Source of the DNA: Candidatus Peribacteraceae bacterium
GTDB taxonomy: Bacteria; Patescibacteriota; Gracilibacteria; Peribacterales; Peribacteraceae
Length of the DNA: 47,797 bases
Direction: 5' to 3'
NCBI GenBank assembly: GCA_022843885.1
Contig: JALHMU010000001.1
Location: 1-47,797, forward strand
Shown here: positions 36 through 45,455 of the stretch, piece after piece
Layout: the number at the start of each line of letters is the position of its first letter
Numbering within the stretch: the first letter of the stretch is position 1
Notes under the pieces: model-generated
Databases searched by the model: none
What the model saw: only the letters and a program-made list of their open reading frames with translations
Told to the model about the DNA's origin: nothing
Translations under genes and position numbers: made by a program

Positions 36-404
36 TCATCCAAACACACTCTCTAGCTCTTGAATATGTTCGGTCACACGATCGTTCGAGACACACAGAA
101 TGTCGATTCGACCTGGCCCGTCATAGTTCTGTTCGATGCACCACGCATGAATCGCACGTTGCAGACAGCGCCGCTTTCGCCGGTCGACCGCAAGACGAAT
201 CGGATAGCGTTCATTATTGGTCGAACGTGTTTTCACTTCAAAAAACACCATCATCTTTTCTCCTGGATCAAACGCGATGATATCCAGCTCATCTCGTCCG
301 AACCGGACATTCGTTCCGCGTATCTCAAAGCCCTCTTTCTTCAAAAAATCGACGGCGACTTGCTCACCTTTCATGCCGAGGATGTGAGATGCAGGAAGAT
401 GCAT
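36..404 (-). CDS. yraN: YraN-family (UPF0102) endonuclease-like protein
   Basis: 122 aa. The GEQVAVDFLKKEGFEI...DELDIIAF...MVFFEVKTRS pattern is typical of UPF0102/YraN. It lies divergent from comM, a common pairing. Confidence 0.75.
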   Translation of the reverse strand: MHLPASHILGMKGEQVAVDFLKKEGFEIRGTNVRFGRDELDIIAFDPGEKMMVFFEVKTRSTNNERYPIRLAVDRRKRRCLQRAIHAWCIEQNYDGPGRIDILCVSNDRVTEHIQELESVFG

Positions 405-2665: not shown

Positions 2666-3517
2666 ATGATCCATTCGATGCACTTCGCAGACGCACTACA
2701 GGCCAAGATCAACGCAACATCCCCCGTGTGTGTCGGGCTGGATCCGATCGTTTCCAAGCTCCCAGAAGGAGTCGAGAAGTCGGTCGCAGGTGTGAAAGAT
2801 TTTTGTATCGGCATCATCGATAGCACGAAAGACATCGCGTCATCCGTGAAGCCGCAGATGGCATACTTTGAATTGCTCGGTTGGGAAGGAATGAAAGTGT
2901 TTTGGGAAGTGTGTGCGTATGCAAAAAAACAAGGACTCATCGTTATCGCAGATGGAAAGCGCAATGACATCGGCTCAACCTGCGAAGCCTACGCCGATGC
3001 GTATCTCTTCAAAGATTCTCCGATCGATGCACTGACCGTGTCGCCATATCTCGGATCAGATGGCATCAATCCATTCATCGAACGTTGCGAGAAAAACGAA
3101 AAAGGTATCTTCGTCCTTGTGAAGACAAGCAACGCGAGCTCCGGTGAACTGCAAGATCTTCCGGTTGGAGATGAGGCCGTGCATGAACACATGGCACAGC
3201 TTGTCGAAAGTTGGGCGGCACAGAAGATCGGACCAACCACAAATCTCTCCTTCATCGGTGCTGTCGTTGGCGCAACGTATCCGGAAGAACTCAAATATCT
3301 CCGCACGCTCATGTCGCACGTTCCGTTCCTGATCCCAGGCTACGGTGCACAAGGCGGTGGAGCAGAAGATGCCAAGTACGGCTTCTTGCCAGATGGCACA
3401 GGTGCCATCGTCAACGCGGCACGTTCCATCAACTACGCATCAAGCAAAGCAGACTGGCGTGATGCAGCACATGCTGCAGCGGTTGCAATGCGTGACGATC
3501 TTCAGAAGGTTCGTTAG
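2666..3517 (+). CDS. pyrF: Orotidine 5'-phosphate decarboxylase, type 2
   Basis: Motifs VCVGLDP, KPQMAYFE, VIADGKRNDIGST, VSPYLGSDG. The start was moved to ATG 2666 to avoid overlapping the upstream gene. Confidence 0.85.
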   Translation: MIHSMHFADALQAKINATSPVCVGLDPIVSKLPEGVEKSVAGVKDFCIGIIDSTKDIASSVKPQMAYFELLGWEGMKVFWEVCAYAKKQGLIVIADGKRNDIGSTCEAYADAYLFKDSPIDALTVSPYLGSDGINPFIERCEKNEKGIFVLVKTSNASSGELQDLPVGDEAVHEHMAQLVESWAAQKIGPTTNLSFIGAVVGATYPEELKYLRTLMSHVPFLIPGYGAQGGGAEDAKYGFLPDGTGAIVNAARSINYASSKADWRDAAHAAAVAMRDDLQKVR

Positions 3518-6481: not shown

Positions 6482-6555
6482 TGGTGACCCTGGCGGGAAT
6501 CGAACCTGCATTTACCCCTTAGGAGAGGGTCGTTCTGTCATTGAACTACAGGGTC
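6482..6555 (-). tRNA. tRNA-Arg (anticodon CCT)
   Basis: Hand-folded cloverleaf of 74 nt: acceptor GACCCTG/CAGGGTC, anticodon stem ACCCT/GGGGT, loop CTCCTAA, T-loop TTCGATT, encoded CCA. The D-loop AATGACA lacks GG and the T-stem has one A-C mismatch. Confidence 0.75.
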
Positions 6556-8948: not shown

Positions 8949-10184
8949 ATGCGCGGAAGACGTGATACTGTATCTTTTGTTCCCATGTTTCGTCGCGCCG
9001 ATTATCTCCTCCTTGGAACGGCCCTCGTCTTAACGCTCTTCGGACTCGCGATGGTCTCAAGCGTCAGCGTGTTTGAAAGTTATCAGCTGACGCAACGCTT
9101 TGTTCTTCAAGGAACGTGGGATGCACCATCAAACGCATTCTATTTGTGGCGCACATTCCTGCATGTGATCGCAGGGATGATCGCGATGTTGTTCATGGCG
9201 TTGATTCCCTATCGTTTATGGGAACGTTTCGCGCGTTTACTCTTCATTCTCACAATCACATCACTGCTCCTCTCATTCATCCCGGCATTCGGAAACAACT
9301 ACGGTACCGCACGCAGCTGGGTGCACATCGGATTCATCAACTTCCAGCCGTCCGAGTTCTTTAAGATCACGCTGATCTTCTACCTCGCTGTGTGGCTGCA
9401 GAAAAAAGAGTCGAGTATCTCCACATTCAAAGAAGGATTCATCCCATTCGTGATCCTGCTCTGTCTTTCCACCTTCCTCGTCGCCATCCAGCCGGATCTC
9501 GGCTCCTTCCTCGTGTTCTCGTGCATTGCCACGGTGATGTTCTTTATCGCTGGAGGAAACTTGTTCCACCTCATTCTTGGCGGTGCGACGGCCGCCATCC
9601 TCGGTCTCCCGATTATCTTGAACGAACAGTATGTTCGTAACCGTTTCCTCGCATTTTTGAATCCAACGGATCCACAAATTGCAGAAGGTATCGGATTCCA
9701 GATCAAACAAGCATTGATTGCGATCGGTTCAGGGGGACTCTTCGGTGTCGGCTATGGCAAATCGATTCAGAAATTCGGATATTTACCGGAAGTACAATCT
9801 GACACTATCTTCGCGGCGATGGGTGAAGAGCTCGGCTTCATGCGTCTCATGATCGTGCTTGGTTTGTACACGATCTTCATCATCCGCGGCTACCGCGTCG
9901 CGGTAAACGCACCGGATCGTTTCGGTTTCATGGTGGCGACCGGTATCACCACATGGATTGCTGCACAGACCATCCTCAACATCATGGTAAACCTCGCGCT
10001 CTTCCCACTCACGGGACTCACGTTACCGTTCATCAGTTACGGCGGATCATCGCTCATCACCGTTCTTGCCGGTGTCGGTGTGCTGCTCAACATTTCCATG
10101 TACTCCACGCAAGAACAGGCCAATGTTCGACGCAGTCAGCGCGCGACACTCACACGTTCCTTCCAACGTTTCGTTCATGGATAA
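8949..10184 (+). CDS. ftsW: SEDS-family peptidoglycan glycosyltransferase FtsW/RodA
   Basis: About 10 TM segments. SEFFKI, QPDLGS, LPEVQSDTIFAAMGEELGF, LPFISYGGSS. It lies immediately upstream of murG with an 8-nt overlap. Alternative start at ATG 8985. Confidence 0.8.
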   Translation: MRGRRDTVSFVPMFRRADYLLLGTALVLTLFGLAMVSSVSVFESYQLTQRFVLQGTWDAPSNAFYLWRTFLHVIAGMIAMLFMALIPYRLWERFARLLFILTITSLLLSFIPAFGNNYGTARSWVHIGFINFQPSEFFKITLIFYLAVWLQKKESSISTFKEGFIPFVILLCLSTFLVAIQPDLGSFLVFSCIATVMFFIAGGNLFHLILGGATAAILGLPIILNEQYVRNRFLAFLNPTDPQIAEGIGFQIKQALIAIGSGGLFGVGYGKSIQKFGYLPEVQSDTIFAAMGEELGFMRLMIVLGLYTIFIIRGYRVAVNAPDRFGFMVATGITTWIAAQTILNIMVNLALFPLTGLTLPFISYGGSSLITVLAGVGVLLNISMYSTQEQANVRRSQRATLTRSFQRFVHG

Positions 10185-33198: not shown

Positions 33199-33284
33199 GC
33201 CGGGGTGGCGAAATGGCAGACGCGCCAGTCTTAGGAACTGGTACCCGCAAGGGTATGGAGGTTCGAGTCCTCTCCCCGGCACCA
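33199..33284 (+). tRNA. tRNA-Leu (anticodon TAG)
   Basis: Class II cloverleaf of 86 nt: acceptor GCCGGGG/CCCCGGC, anticodon stem CCAGT/ACTGG, loop CTTAGGA, long variable arm, T-loop TTCGAGT, encoded CCA. Confidence 0.9.
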
Positions 33285-38886: not shown

Positions 38887-39990
38887 ATGAAGACGGCCCT
38901 GATCGCCGATTGGCTTCCTACGTTTGGTGGCGCAGAACATGTGCTGGCATCCATTCGCAAACTTTTTCCGGATGCGCCGATCTTCACGACGGTCGCAAAG
39001 AAAGAAAAACTCGGACCACTCGCGACTGCGGATATTCGCACATCGTCATTGCAGAAGTGGTATCGATTACTTGGTCGTCATCAGTATTTATTACCGTGGA
39101 TGCCACGCACGATCGAAAACATCAATCTCTCTTCATTCGATCTCATTCTCAGCTCCTCACATGCCGTCGGGAAGGGCATCATTCCGCCGAGTCATGCAGT
39201 ACACGTCTGTTACTGCCATACGCCGATGCGCTACGCATGGGAGATGGAAGGTGAGTATTTGAAAGATTTCAAACTGCGCGGTCCGCTGAAGTGGTTCGCA
39301 CAGTCACAACTCAAAAAATTGCGCCGATGGGATCTCTCAAACAGCAAACGCGTGGATGTCTTCATCGCGAATTCCAAAGAAACACAATCACGCATCAAAA
39401 AATTATATAACCGTGACAGCGTGGTTATTCAGCCACCAGTCGATGATCGTTTTTTTGTGCAGGATCTTTCTTCGGTACCCAAAGAAAATCATTTCCTTGC
39501 GATCGGCCGCTTCGTTCCGTACAAGCGATTCGATCTGCTGATAGAAACGGCGAATGCGTTGGGATTCCCCTTGAAGATTATTGGTCGCGGGGATGATGAA
39601 AAACGTCTGCGAAAGCTCGCAGGACCCACAGTGGAGTTCCTTGGGTTTATTCCTGACGAGGAATTGCCACGTCAGTATATGGCAGCTCGAGCCGTGCTCT
39701 TCCCGCAGTTTGAAGATGCCGGCGTTGTTCCGTTGGAGGCCCAAGCAAGTGGCACGCCCGTCATCGCATTTGCGAAAGGTGGCGCACTGGAAACAGTCAT
39801 CGATCAGAAAACCGGATTGTTCTTTGCAGCACAAACACAGGACGCACTCAAAGATGCACTCGTGCGATTCGATAAAAGTTCGTTTGATCCAGCAGTTATT
39901 CGCGAGCATGCGCAGCAATTTTCTGAAGCACGGTTTTTGGAACAGACGAAGAAAACGATTGATGACGCGCTTCATACATTCGGACGATGA
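38887..39990 (+). CDS. GT4-family glycosyltransferase
   Basis: MKTALIADWLPTFGGAEHVL at the N-terminus and an E-x7-E region (FPQFEDAGVVPLEAQASGTPVIA). Confidence 0.8.
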   Translation: MKTALIADWLPTFGGAEHVLASIRKLFPDAPIFTTVAKKEKLGPLATADIRTSSLQKWYRLLGRHQYLLPWMPRTIENINLSSFDLILSSSHAVGKGIIPPSHAVHVCYCHTPMRYAWEMEGEYLKDFKLRGPLKWFAQSQLKKLRRWDLSNSKRVDVFIANSKETQSRIKKLYNRDSVVIQPPVDDRFFVQDLSSVPKENHFLAIGRFVPYKRFDLLIETANALGFPLKIIGRGDDEKRLRKLAGPTVEFLGFIPDEELPRQYMAARAVLFPQFEDAGVVPLEAQASGTPVIAFAKGGALETVIDQKTGLFFAAQTQDALKDALVRFDKSSFDPAVIREHAQQFSEARFLEQTKKTIDDALHTFGR

Positions 39991-40634
39991 AGATCGGATT
40001 CGAACATCGTTTCTTTTTTCGCGATGACTCGGTTGCTGATGCGATCGACGCTGCAAAGCGCATGAAAGCCTCAAGCATTGCATTTCCGAATCAGGTTCAC
40101 GGAAACCGTACGATCATCATGCGTGAATCATCACATGGTGTGATCGATGCGGATGGCATCGTGGCCGATGTTCCTGGGCTCACACTTGCGATTCGCTTTG
40201 CGGATTGTCAGAACTTTTTGATTTACAGTAGACAGCAACATGTACTGGGATTGCTCCACGCTGGATGGCGCGGACTCGCCGCACACGCGATCGAAGAATT
40301 CTTTCGTGTTCTTACAAATGAATGGAACATCGATCCGAAAGATACGATCGTCATCGCAGGCCCATCACTGTGCAAGAACTGCGCTGAATTTTCTGATCCT
40401 CACAATGAACTGCCCGCGCATCTGCATCCATTCATTGATGGGCGATGTGTTGATCTGATTGCAGCGGCAGAGCATGTATTCGACACGCTTGGTATTCCGA
40501 AAGAACAGCGAGAACGACATCCAGACTGCACCAAATGTAATTTGGTATCGTACTGGAGTCATCGCGCGATGAGCAACGAAATGCCCAAAGAAAAAAATGT
40601 ACATCGCAATTTCCTTCTCGGATATTTGAGGTAA
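39987..40634 (+). CDS. pgeF: YfiH/PgeF (DUF152) peptidoglycan editing factor / laccase-domain protein
   Basis: NQVHGN, ADCQNFL, HAGWRG. ATGA overlap with the GT4 gene. Confidence 0.85.
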   Translation: MKIGFEHRFFFRDDSVADAIDAAKRMKASSIAFPNQVHGNRTIIMRESSHGVIDADGIVADVPGLTLAIRFADCQNFLIYSRQQHVLGLLHAGWRGLAAHAIEEFFRVLTNEWNIDPKDTIVIAGPSLCKNCAEFSDPHNELPAHLHPFIDGRCVDLIAAAEHVFDTLGIPKEQRERHPDCTKCNLVSYWSHRAMSNEMPKEKNVHRNFLLGYLR

Positions 40635-40728
40635 GATGAGTACCGTCTCGACGATTCGTAAGTGCGCTCATTGCTTTTTCTCTATTACGTCTTAAAGGGA
40701 GGCCTAATCTCACCCGCTCGCGGGCGGG

Positions 40729-40980
40729 CGATGCGGTCACCCACCTGAGAAATCAGGGGACTAGCAGAGATGCACGACGGTCGTCTTGATAATGCGTGGG
40801 TGAAACCTACGGTTTCCCCCACGGACCCTCTTCCCTTCAAAGGTGTCCTCACAAGATTGGGCCCCGCGAGACCCACTTGTTCGGACGTTCTTTTTACATG
40901 AGCGCGGGTAGCTACCCGCGCTGGACGATCAATATTCCCCGCAGCTGTGATTCGCAAATCGCAGTACGGTGACGCAGTCG
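40729..40980 (+). ncRNA. Candidate structured ncRNA, class unassigned
   Basis: A closing helix (40729-40741 with 40968-40980) encloses at least six further helices. There is a GAAA tetraloop (40749-40752) and a GCGA loop (40866-40869). Three G-U pairs exist only on the plus strand. The region lies in a 388-nt gap whose only ORF reads as noncoding. Confidence 0.45.
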
Positions 40981-41022
40981 CCGTTTTTCGGAGCATTTTC
41001 AATACCTAAATTTATATGCACG

Positions 41023-41322
41023 CTATCCCTTATATCTTTTTAGAAGCACCCACAACAAACAAAGAAAAGGCAGCAAGCCCAAACTTATGGAAATAAGCAA
41101 AACTTCTGATCGTGCAAACCAAAAAAGAGATCCTGCAGCCCCACATGCAATAAAAAGTAAAAAAAGCGTCGAATTTCTGTTCCAATGACGAGCGGCTAAC
41201 CAGAAAGACAAAAAATTTATGGCTATGATGCCCGCCAGCATTAGCACCTCAAGGCCCACAATAACTATTCCTGTCATCGGATCCATCGTTGTGAGTCTAG
41301 GGAGAAGAGATGATAAGATCAA
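41023..41322 (-). CDS. Small membrane protein (99 aa)
   Basis: Three hydrophobic segments and no motif. Confidence 0.45.
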   Translation of the reverse strand: MILSSLLPRLTTMDPMTGIVIVGLEVLMLAGIIAINFLSFWLAARHWNRNSTLFLLFIACGAAGSLFWFARSEVLLISISLGLLPFLCLLWVLLKRYKG

Positions 41323-41326
41323 TCGT

Positions 41327-42403
41327 ATGAATCTTCAGGAACGCATCGCACAGGCCAACAGTCAGCTCGCAACGTATGCGATTCCGCATCTTGAGAGTCG
41401 TGATGCGCCGGATACACCGGATGAAACACGATTCCCCTTTCAGCGTGATCGTGATCGCATCATTCATACGACAGCATTTCGCCGCTTAAAACATAAGACA
41501 CAAGTGTTCGTCGCGCCATACGGTGATCATTTCCGCACACGCCTCACGCACACACTTGAAGTGGCGCAGATCAGTCGTGACATCGCACGCACGCTTGGAC
41601 TCAATGAAGATCTCGCCGAATGTATCGCATTGGCTCATGATCTTGGACACACACCATTCGGCCACGCCGGTGAAGAAGCGATGAACGAATGCATGCAGCA
41701 GTTTGGAAAAACATTTGAACACAATGAACAAAGTTATCGCATCGTGACATTGCTCGAAGAGCGAAAGCCCGGTGTCTTCGGATTGAATTTGAACCGTGAA
41801 GTGTTGGACGGACTCTTGAAACATTCCACGCCACATGATCATCCGACCAATCCTGATATCCCGCAGCTTGGTCACGCACCGTCACTGGAAGCGCAAGTTG
41901 TGAACCTCGCCGATGAGATTGCCTACACCGCTCACGATACCGAAGATGGGCTTCGGGCAGGGCTCTTCCCGGAATCGAGCTTACGCGAATTAAGCATTGT
42001 GAAACGTCTGAACGGTGCGTCATCTATCCGCAGCAATTTGATTCATGTACTCGTGCACGATTTGTATCGCACCTTCGATGAGAACATGAAAAAGTTTGGC
42101 ATCGTGACGTGGCAGCAGGTCTATACGACGGAGATGCCACTCGTTCTTTTCTCATCCGAGATTGCAGCCGACCTCAAACAAATCAGAACATTCCTCTGGG
42201 AGAAGATGTACATGACGGAACAAGTCATGACACAAGCCGAAGCAGGAAAAGCGCTCATCAAAAAACTCTTCAATGCATACATCGCTGCTCCTCCGGAAGA
42301 AGTGACGAAGCTGATGACACGATCCATCACGAAAGAAGACGCCGTGAAAGATTACATCGCGGGTATGACGGATACATTCGCGATCGAAGTCTCAAAACAT
42401 TAA
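41327..42403 (+). CDS. dgt: dGTP triphosphohydrolase-like HD-domain protein
   Basis: FQRDRDRIIHTTAFRRLKHKTQVF, RLTHTLEVAQISR, LAHDLGHTPFGHAGE. Start trimmed to ATG 41327. Confidence 0.85.
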   Translation: MNLQERIAQANSQLATYAIPHLESRDAPDTPDETRFPFQRDRDRIIHTTAFRRLKHKTQVFVAPYGDHFRTRLTHTLEVAQISRDIARTLGLNEDLAECIALAHDLGHTPFGHAGEEAMNECMQQFGKTFEHNEQSYRIVTLLEERKPGVFGLNLNREVLDGLLKHSTPHDHPTNPDIPQLGHAPSLEAQVVNLADEIAYTAHDTEDGLRAGLFPESSLRELSIVKRLNGASSIRSNLIHVLVHDLYRTFDENMKKFGIVTWQQVYTTEMPLVLFSSEIAADLKQIRTFLWEKMYMTEQVMTQAEAGKALIKKLFNAYIAAPPEEVTKLMTRSITKEDAVKDYIAGMTDTFAIEVSKH

Positions 42404-45379: not shown

Positions 45380-45455
45380 TGGCAGGCGCGGTAGGGATCG
45401 AACCTACGACCCTCGGTTTTGGAGACCGATGCTCTACCAACTGAGCTACGCGCCT
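45380..45455 (-). tRNA. tRNA-Trp (anticodon CCA)
   Basis: Cloverleaf of 76 nt: AGGCGCG/CGCGCCT acceptor, D-arm GCTC-AGTTGGTA-GAGC, anticodon loop CTCCAAA, T-loop TTCGATC, discriminator G, encoded CCA. Confidence 0.9.

Follow-up and report, generated by a model that had tools for sequence, protein, structure and literature searches.

A probable diverged 6S RNA gene with a conserved trailer hairpin and putative terminators in Candidatus Peribacteraceae

The length quoted for members of the 6S RNA family is about 200 nucleotides (nt), and in Bacillus subtilis 6S-1 RNA a preformed hairpin has been described within the 3′ strand of the central bubble (PMC8876501). The B. subtilis 6S-2 transcript has a putative terminator hairpin at its 3′ end, which is either kept in the RNA or trimmed off (PMC10578484), and the approximately 300-nt Ms1 RNA of Actinobacteria folds into a 6S-like rod and regulates RNA polymerase, in its case by binding the core enzyme (PMC9130861). 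Here we analyze a structured gap at positions 40635-41022 of a 47,797-nt stretch of DNA from Candidatus Peribacteraceae bacterium (GenBank assembly GCA_022843885.1, contig JALHMU010000001.1, positions 1 to 47,797, hereafter referred to as the window), which most probably contains a diverged 6S RNA gene followed by a conserved trailer. The Peribacteria RNA resembles the 6S-1 type in its rod, in the conserved segments GGGAG..CC and CACCCACCUGG, and in the small hairpin on the 3′ side of its bubble (PMC8876501); like other 6S RNAs, it is encoded by a stand-alone gene in every related genome examined. It differs from the Rfam family RF00013 in that it scores 24-35 bits, less than the 46.4 bits of the family cutoff, and in that its core measures only about 146 nt. 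As in 6S-2, a putative terminator hairpin lies at the 3′ end, but the Peribacteria extension is about 100 nt long, comprises two conserved hairpins, a pyrimidine-rich linker and an internal loop, and is found in only some members of the lineage. With Ms1, the RNA shares a rod shape and a 6S-like structure; however, the 6S model misses Ms1, whereas it matches the Peribacteria RNA in sequence.

The gap is bounded by a PgeF-type open reading frame (ORF) on the plus strand and by a 99-aa ORF on the minus strand. Its G+C content is 0.57-0.59, compared to 0.43-0.49 in the flanks. On the plus strand, positions 40700-41000 fold at -120.6 kcal/mol with a z-score of -3.74, a value equalled by 0 of 100 shuffles, and the whole gap (40630-41010) reaches a z-score of -4.36 against shuffled sequence, whereas the minus strand folds more weakly (z-score of -2.88 overall). 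Considering the raised G+C content together with the difference in folding between the two strands, we conclude that the gap is a real, structured, plus-strand non-coding element, in agreement with a preliminary description made from the sequence alone. The local hairpins that this description had drawn at 40744-40757, 40795-40823, 40845-40886, 40902-40921 and 40945-40964 were all recovered. It had also stated that the element belonged to no standard class of non-coding RNA and, more specifically, had found in it no features of RNase P RNA, transfer-messenger RNA (tmRNA) or signal recognition particle (SRP) RNA and no 6S-like single long helix. Scanning the whole window with Rfam at the gathering threshold revealed three tRNA genes only, with no family in the gap, and no tRNA, tmRNA, RNase P RNA, SRP RNA or riboswitch was detected in 40500-41100 by Rfam at E <= 10 or by ARAGORN. 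The absence of a 6S-like helix was stated wrongly, since a 6S rod occupies 40645-40790. The preliminary description missed this rod because its model began at 40729 and thus omitted the 5′ half (40645-40728).

When positions 40550-41100 were scanned in E-value mode, RF00013 matched 40641-40795 on the plus strand over model positions 1-187, with a score of 35.3 bits and an E-value of 1.4e-5 that refers to the 551-nt search space. No other Rfam family matched the gap at E <= 10. The match in sequence covers the most conserved segments of the family, namely GGGAG..CC and, on the 3′ side of the bubble, CACCCACCUGG; the segment GCGGYCACCCACCU, which aligns to the model consensus gcaCCCACCUgg, is invariant in 24 homologues. 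The core folds on its own with a z-score of -4.05, and deletions in the RF00013 alignment place its shortening in the segment that links the bubble-proximal helix to the apical loop. Because the match is full length and recurs at the syntenic site of relatives, the claim that the element could not be assigned to a standard class does not hold: we class the element as a diverged member of the 6S family and not as a new class of RNA. The preliminary description had reasoned that a significant Rfam match would make the RNA known rather than novel. In spirit the E-value-mode match, together with covariation and synteny, does so, although the score stays below the curated cutoff.

The consensus structure was computed with RNAalifold, using 15 homologues at first and then 24 (alignment A3). 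In the 15-sequence alignment, 95% of the cells pair, compared to 32-48% when the partners are slid, and compensatory changes occur at 11 pairs, a covariation score that was reached by 0 of 500 shuffles. From the 24-sequence alignment, a 6S-type rod of 40 pairs was obtained, and compensatory changes occur at 15 of these. The rod consists of a closing stem, a bubble and an apical stem (Table 1), which is the architecture of 6S RNAs. Its closing stem (A3 columns 3-17 with 143-156) comprises 12 pairs, with compensatory changes at 2, while the bubble-proximal helix is paired in 100% of the 15 sequences and varies, if at all, by wobble only. On the 5′ side of the bubble, a conserved core, UUYUYCUC, faces the conserved 3′ side; from what is described for the family, this 5′ side would be the expected template region for product-RNA synthesis (PMC8876501). 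The 3′ side is nearly invariant (GCGGUCACCCACCUG). The small hairpin that it carries, the GNRA hairpin of the preliminary description, reads CCUGG..CCAGG in relatives, and both of its strands differ in L082 (CCUAGC..GCUAGG) and in L080.

Homology searches with PgeF identified a Candidatus Peribacteria genome (L001) with a full-length 6S match directly after pgeF and before a dGTPase gene (dgt). When metagenomes were scanned for a pair of conserved motifs, CTCGACG and GCGGTCACCCACCTG, 70 loci were obtained. Of these, 14 proved to be further true homologues, giving 15 with L001, which carries the motif pair as well; the remaining 55 lay in G+C-rich coding DNA and matched by chance, as judged by eye and confirmed by a clade model (R1) built from 24 sequences. 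Rfam 6S matched 11 of the 12 homologues scanned (24.6-34.8 bits), 10 of them at full length: the match in L016 is cut at a contig end, and all others cover model positions 1-187. Protein homology of dGTPase or PgeF alone led to 10 distinct loci with sufficient flanking sequence, and each of them carries the element as well. R1 scores the window at 139.7 bits on the plus strand versus 25.1 bits on the minus strand; it scores L089, a locus outside the training set, at 119 bits, and it gave no match in any of the 55 chance loci. Genes at the locus are usually arranged as pgeF, 6S, then either a NUDIX gene on the minus strand, a small ORF or nothing, followed by dgt and an M23 peptidase gene on the minus strand. 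The orientation of 6S relative to dgt is flipped in L084 and in L086/L087, where 6S lies between pgeF and dgt. Since the strand is flipped in L084 and L086, we conclude that the 6S RNA is an independent gene.

A TAnnnT box precedes the 6S element in 21 of 25 loci, about 7 nt upstream and between positions -16 and -6 as counted from the invariant GUCUCGACG; in L089, TAACAT occupies the equivalent place. In the window, the corresponding hexamer overlaps the stop codon of pgeF (Table 1), and its position suggests that transcription starts at around 40645.

Several observations weigh against this assignment. All scores, that of the window (35.3 bits) as well as those of the relatives, are lower than the curated RF00013 gathering score of 46.4 bits, and by the Rfam rule none of these sequences would be called a member. 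The core is short, at about 146 nt compared to the family length of about 200 nt (PMC8876501); against a range of 150-200 nt, the predicted ends give about 146 nt for the core, or about 179 nt if the first trailer hairpin (H1, see below) is retained. There is no convincing -35 box, a simple σ70 scan found no full -35/-10 pair in the gap, and simple promoter and terminator scans flagged nothing within it, the criteria of these scans being too strict for interrupted stems. The trailer is lost or has decayed in most relatives, and the last part of the gap, 40898-41022, had no homologue in a short-word BLAST search against all fetched loci and the rest of the window. Taking these points together with the sequence match, the covariation and the synteny, we assign a probability of about 0.85 to the reading that the gap contains a diverged ssrS-type 6S gene, followed by a conserved trailer hairpin and terminators.

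Table 1. Coordinates of the features discussed in the text (window positions)
Feature	Position	Strand	Basis or remark
PgeF-type ORF	39987-40634	+	Pfam Cu-oxidase_4; upstream neighbour of the gap
-10-like hexamer TAAGAT	40633-40638	+	Overlaps the pgeF stop codon TAA (40632-40634)
Probable 6S (SsrS-type) RNA core, ~146 nt	40645-40790	+	Rfam RF00013, clade model, covariation
Closing stem, 5′ strand (GUC..GACGAU.CGU)	40645-40659	+	Pairs with 40777-40790
Short internal stem	40673-76 with 40762-65	+	RNAalifold
Central bubble, 5′ side, UUUCUCUAUUACGUCUUAAA, 20 nt, unpaired	40677-40696	+	A3 columns 36-55, RNAalifold
Bubble-proximal helix, GGG.GGCC with GGUC.CCC	40697-40704 with 40735-40742	+	Encloses the apical hairpin
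Apical hairpin	40710-40731	+	Compensatory changes at 8 of 10 pairs
Small bubble hairpin, 3′ side, CCUGA-GAAA-UCAGG	40744-40757	+	Conserved
Closing stem, 3′ strand, ACGGUCGUCUUGAU	40777-40790	+	Covariation; includes GGUCGUCU (40779-86) of the preliminary description
Trailer hairpin H1, 12 pairs and one U-C mismatch, loop UAC	40795-40823	+	Conserved after 6S
Linker GACCCUCUUCCCUUCAAAGGU, unpaired, C/U-rich	40824-40844	+	Conserved pattern
Hairpin H2, then U-run UUCUUUUU	40845-40886, U-run 40888-40895	+	Conserved architecture
Hairpin A, perfect 22-nt palindrome AGCGCGGGUAG/CUACCCGCGCU	40901-40922	+	Fold
Hairpin B, 9 pairs	40944-40965	+	Includes one U-G pair, which the minus strand would read as a C-A mismatch
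Hairpin C, ACGGUGAC-GCA-GUCGCCGU, 8 bp (40966-84), then U-run	40966-40988	+	Includes GGUGACGCAGUCG of the preliminary description
99-aa ORF	41023-41322	-	Membrane-like; no Pfam match; downstream neighbour of the gap
tRNA gene	6485-6555	-	Rfam at gathering threshold
tRNA gene	33199-33281	+	Rfam at gathering threshold
tRNA gene	45383-45455	-	Rfam at gathering threshold

Directly after 6S, the window shares a module consisting of H1, a C/U-rich linker and a second hairpin (H2) with L013, L029, L062, L078 and L089, as well as with L035, in which H1 carries an insert. Because MAFFT alignments of the trailer (A2, A4 and A5) were structurally inconsistent, a hand-made register, which is less rigorous, was used instead for the pair counts. 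Among the module-bearing loci, H1 ranges from 12 to 15 pairs with a UAC or UAUA loop, 60 of 65 cells pair, and 8 positions are changed on both sides. In every relative with the module, the linker follows the pattern GG(A)CYCUCUUYCC, and it is unpaired in every independent fold. H2 has a 4-bp base rich in G+C; above it come an internal loop that is fixed, with UC(C)A in its 5′ strand and UUC in its 3′ strand, and an upper stem that varies. Covariation is seen at 3 of 4 pairs in the base stem and at 4 of 4 in the upper stem. The architecture of H2 followed by a U-run is present in L013, L029, L035 and L062; the U-run of L078 is weak (AUUUAU), and the contig of L089 stops inside H2. Remnants of the trailer were found in L066, L077, L085 and L056, whereas the module is absent from L001, L075, L080 and L082, among others, a simple hairpin replacing it in L082. 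A strict terminator scan did not flag H2, the stem of which is interrupted. We infer that H2 and its U-run are a putative intrinsic terminator of the 6S transcript, and H1 may be a 3′ protection or processing element.

The conservation of this module also bears on a further explanation that is compatible with 6S, namely that the trailer (40795-40895) is itself a functional RNA, either a small RNA that is cut from the 6S precursor and pairs through its pyrimidine-rich single strand with purine-rich ribosome-binding sites, or an attenuator controlling how much transcription from the 6S promoter reads through into dgt. The order of hairpin, C/U strand and terminator covaries among relatives whose dGTPases are only about 55-65% identical, the linker and the internal loop of H2 (UCCA, UUC) are conserved in sequence although a plain terminator needs neither, and the full combination, when sought with a descriptor in 211 kb of Peribacteria sequence, was detected only adjoining 6S. 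Moreover, a same-strand gene, either dgt or a small ORF and then dgt, follows the full module in L013, L029, L035 and L078. By contrast, the next gene in the window is convergent, leaving nothing on the same strand to attenuate, the dgt start of L029 appears from its sequence to lack a purine-rich ribosome-binding site, most relatives have lost the module or retain it in decayed form, and there are 7 examples only. Nor did an alternative pairing of H1 with the linker stand out: the 5′ arm of H1 pairs with its own linker at a mean of -9.1 kcal/mol and with the linkers of other loci at -8.0 kcal/mol, both far weaker than H1 itself, and a switch built on this pairing was rejected because a locus's own linker was not clearly better than those of the others. 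We regard a functional trailer as unlikely, though it fares better than the other alternatives. A shade less probable again is the specific proposal that one branch of Peribacteria makes a composite 6S transcript of about 250 nt, the conserved 3′ domain of which (H1, the C/U strand and the terminator hairpin with the UCCA/UUC loop) is a second functional RNA; this could take the form of a 3′-derived small RNA that pairs with purine-rich ribosome-binding sites, or of a regulated terminator that couples 6S to dgt. Within the locus, anything new could lie only in the conserved 6S-linked trailer. A further candidate pairing, between UCACCCAC (40737-44) in the 6S core and GUGGGUGA (40796-803) in the 5′ arm of H1, is exact in the window; it is absent from L013, L062, L078 and L089 and was set aside as probably due to chance.

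On the reading of the locus as a 6S gene with a trailer, the -10-like hexamer (40633-40638) would start transcription at around 40645. The first 146 nt or so fold into the 6S rod, as structure and homology show, with a pyrimidine-rich 5′ side and a hairpin-bearing 3′ side of the bubble and with an apical stem-loop. By analogy with the family, the RNA would mimic an open promoter and occupy the RNA polymerase holoenzyme that carries the primary σ factor, and its release would follow from the synthesis of a short product RNA by the polymerase, with the 5′ side of the bubble as template. The transcript would then run on through the very stable H1, the single-stranded C/U-rich segment and H2, the conservation and shape of which are observed, and would end near 40895 at the U-run. 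Hairpin C might serve as a last, back-up terminator.

A less probable explanation is that the rod only resembles 6S and belongs to a different RNA with another partner. Ms1 is a precedent for such a look-alike with a different target (PMC9130861), and both the sub-threshold Rfam scores and the short core would be in line with it. However, the Peribacteria element matches the family in sequence as well as in shape, in precisely its most conserved segments (GGGAG..CC and CACCCACCUGG), and model positions 1-187 are covered in every relative but L016, the one that is cut by a contig end. In addition, no further 6S candidate was found in the available sequence by Rfam at the gathering threshold, and R1 detected no second copy in the window. 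On this evidence a look-alike is improbable, and the RNA is best read as 6S.

The single nested RNA of about 250 nt (40729-40980) that the preliminary description had proposed was closed by helices formed through long-range pairing, first of 40729-41 with 40968-80 and second of 40779-86 with 40923-30. The complementary segments are indeed present, and the whole gap folds better than shuffled sequence. However, the closing duplex is at chance level: its -13.9 kcal/mol compares with a shuffled mean of -12.3 kcal/mol and a best shuffle of -19.0 kcal/mol, and no relative has the partner. The second helix amounts to raw complementarity, and its partner region, like the other 3′ partner, lies within 40898-41022, a region without counterpart in the fetched relatives. 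Both 5′ strands sit in 6S helices instead. The first, CGAUGCGGUCACC (40729-41), is a conserved segment of the 3′ side of the bubble and its adjoining helix, which is paired in 100% of sequences, and the second belongs to the covarying closing stem. The minimum-free-energy fold of the full gap separates the 6S domain from the downstream hairpins, and the conserved putative terminator (40845-40895) would fall in the middle of the proposed RNA. The span thus joins the 3′ half of 6S, the conserved trailer with its putative terminator and a separate hairpin array. Since the closing duplex is at chance level, the partners lack counterparts and the 5′ strands pair elsewhere within 6S, we rejected the nested model, which we consider very improbable. 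The prospect that the 105-aa minus-strand ORF (40685-41002) encodes a protein is more remote still: 105 codons are open, but the ORF has no Pfam match, it starts with TTG and is rich in R, A, P and G, as expected from a G+C-rich RNA read backwards, its 3′ half overlaps 6S, where the compensatory changes and 1-2-nt indels that distinguish the homologues break any frame, and its 5′ third lies in sequence without counterpart in the fetched relatives, so that the preliminary description was right to treat it as non-coding. The longest open frames of the homologous regions were uninformative in this respect, since long stretches free of stop codons arise in several frames of a G+C-rich RNA.

Downstream of the conserved module, hairpins A, B and C occupy a segment that looks strain-specific. 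The folding z-score is -3.40 on the plus strand (40898-40992) and -1.44 on the minus strand (40898-41022). The contigs of the closest relatives end before reaching this segment. One of these relatives is very close, L074, with a dGTPase that is 96% identical; its contig stops short of the gap, and upstream of dgt its sequence is already completely different. A search of 40898-41326 for terminal repeats or duplications, as expected of a mobile insert, found nothing convincing, and a scan of viral contigs gave 0 matches. Hairpin C was not flagged by the strict terminator scan; our best guess, weakly held, is that it is a back-up plus-strand terminator facing the convergent small ORF. The palindrome at 40901-40922 (AGCGCGGGTAG/CTACCCGCGCT) could be a protein-binding site, instead of or besides forming an RNA hairpin. 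The small ORF itself (41023-41322, minus strand) has no conserved counterpart in L074 and shows no relation to the 109-aa ORF of L082, and it may be strain-specific or spurious. The listed start of the dGTPase ORF, 41219, overlaps it (41219-41326, plus strand); judging from the alignment of homologues, the true dgt start is probably the ATG at 41327.

The interval between 6S and dgt is a hot spot of gene gain and loss among the relatives, being occupied by NUDIX genes, small ORFs or nothing. In L088, a gene for an IS200/IS605-type Y1 transposase (PF01797; 1289-1987) lies between the NUDIX gene and dgt, near the 6S locus. In L060 (~3140-3290), the 3′ end of 6S, GGTCGTTTGGACGTGA, is repeated about 130 nt downstream, flanking an inserted segment, in what looks like a duplication made by an insertion. 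Two further observations concern other parts of the fetched loci: L035 contains a weak SAM riboswitch match (106-232, minus strand) of 30 bits, less than the gathering score of 44.4 bits, and L013 contains a long near-perfect palindromic hairpin (9308-9391) that matches several microRNA-precursor models on both strands, certainly by chance.

A limited literature search, which is not proof of absence, found no work that connects 6S RNA to the candidate phyla radiation or to Peregrinibacteria; the sole co-mention of '6S RNA' and 'Patescibacteria' that it returned concerns mitochondrial SRP. 6S RNA is a global transcription regulator in many bacteria, and its retention in the reduced-genome Peribacteria fills an annotation gap. 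The shortened Peribacteria form escapes the Rfam cutoff, and the case illustrates that synteny and covariation can rescue covariance-model matches that fall below threshold; R1 and the 24-sequence alignment can be used for annotating 6S in related genomes. The 6S-linked trailer is a small addition to this RNA, perhaps worth a transcriptomic look.

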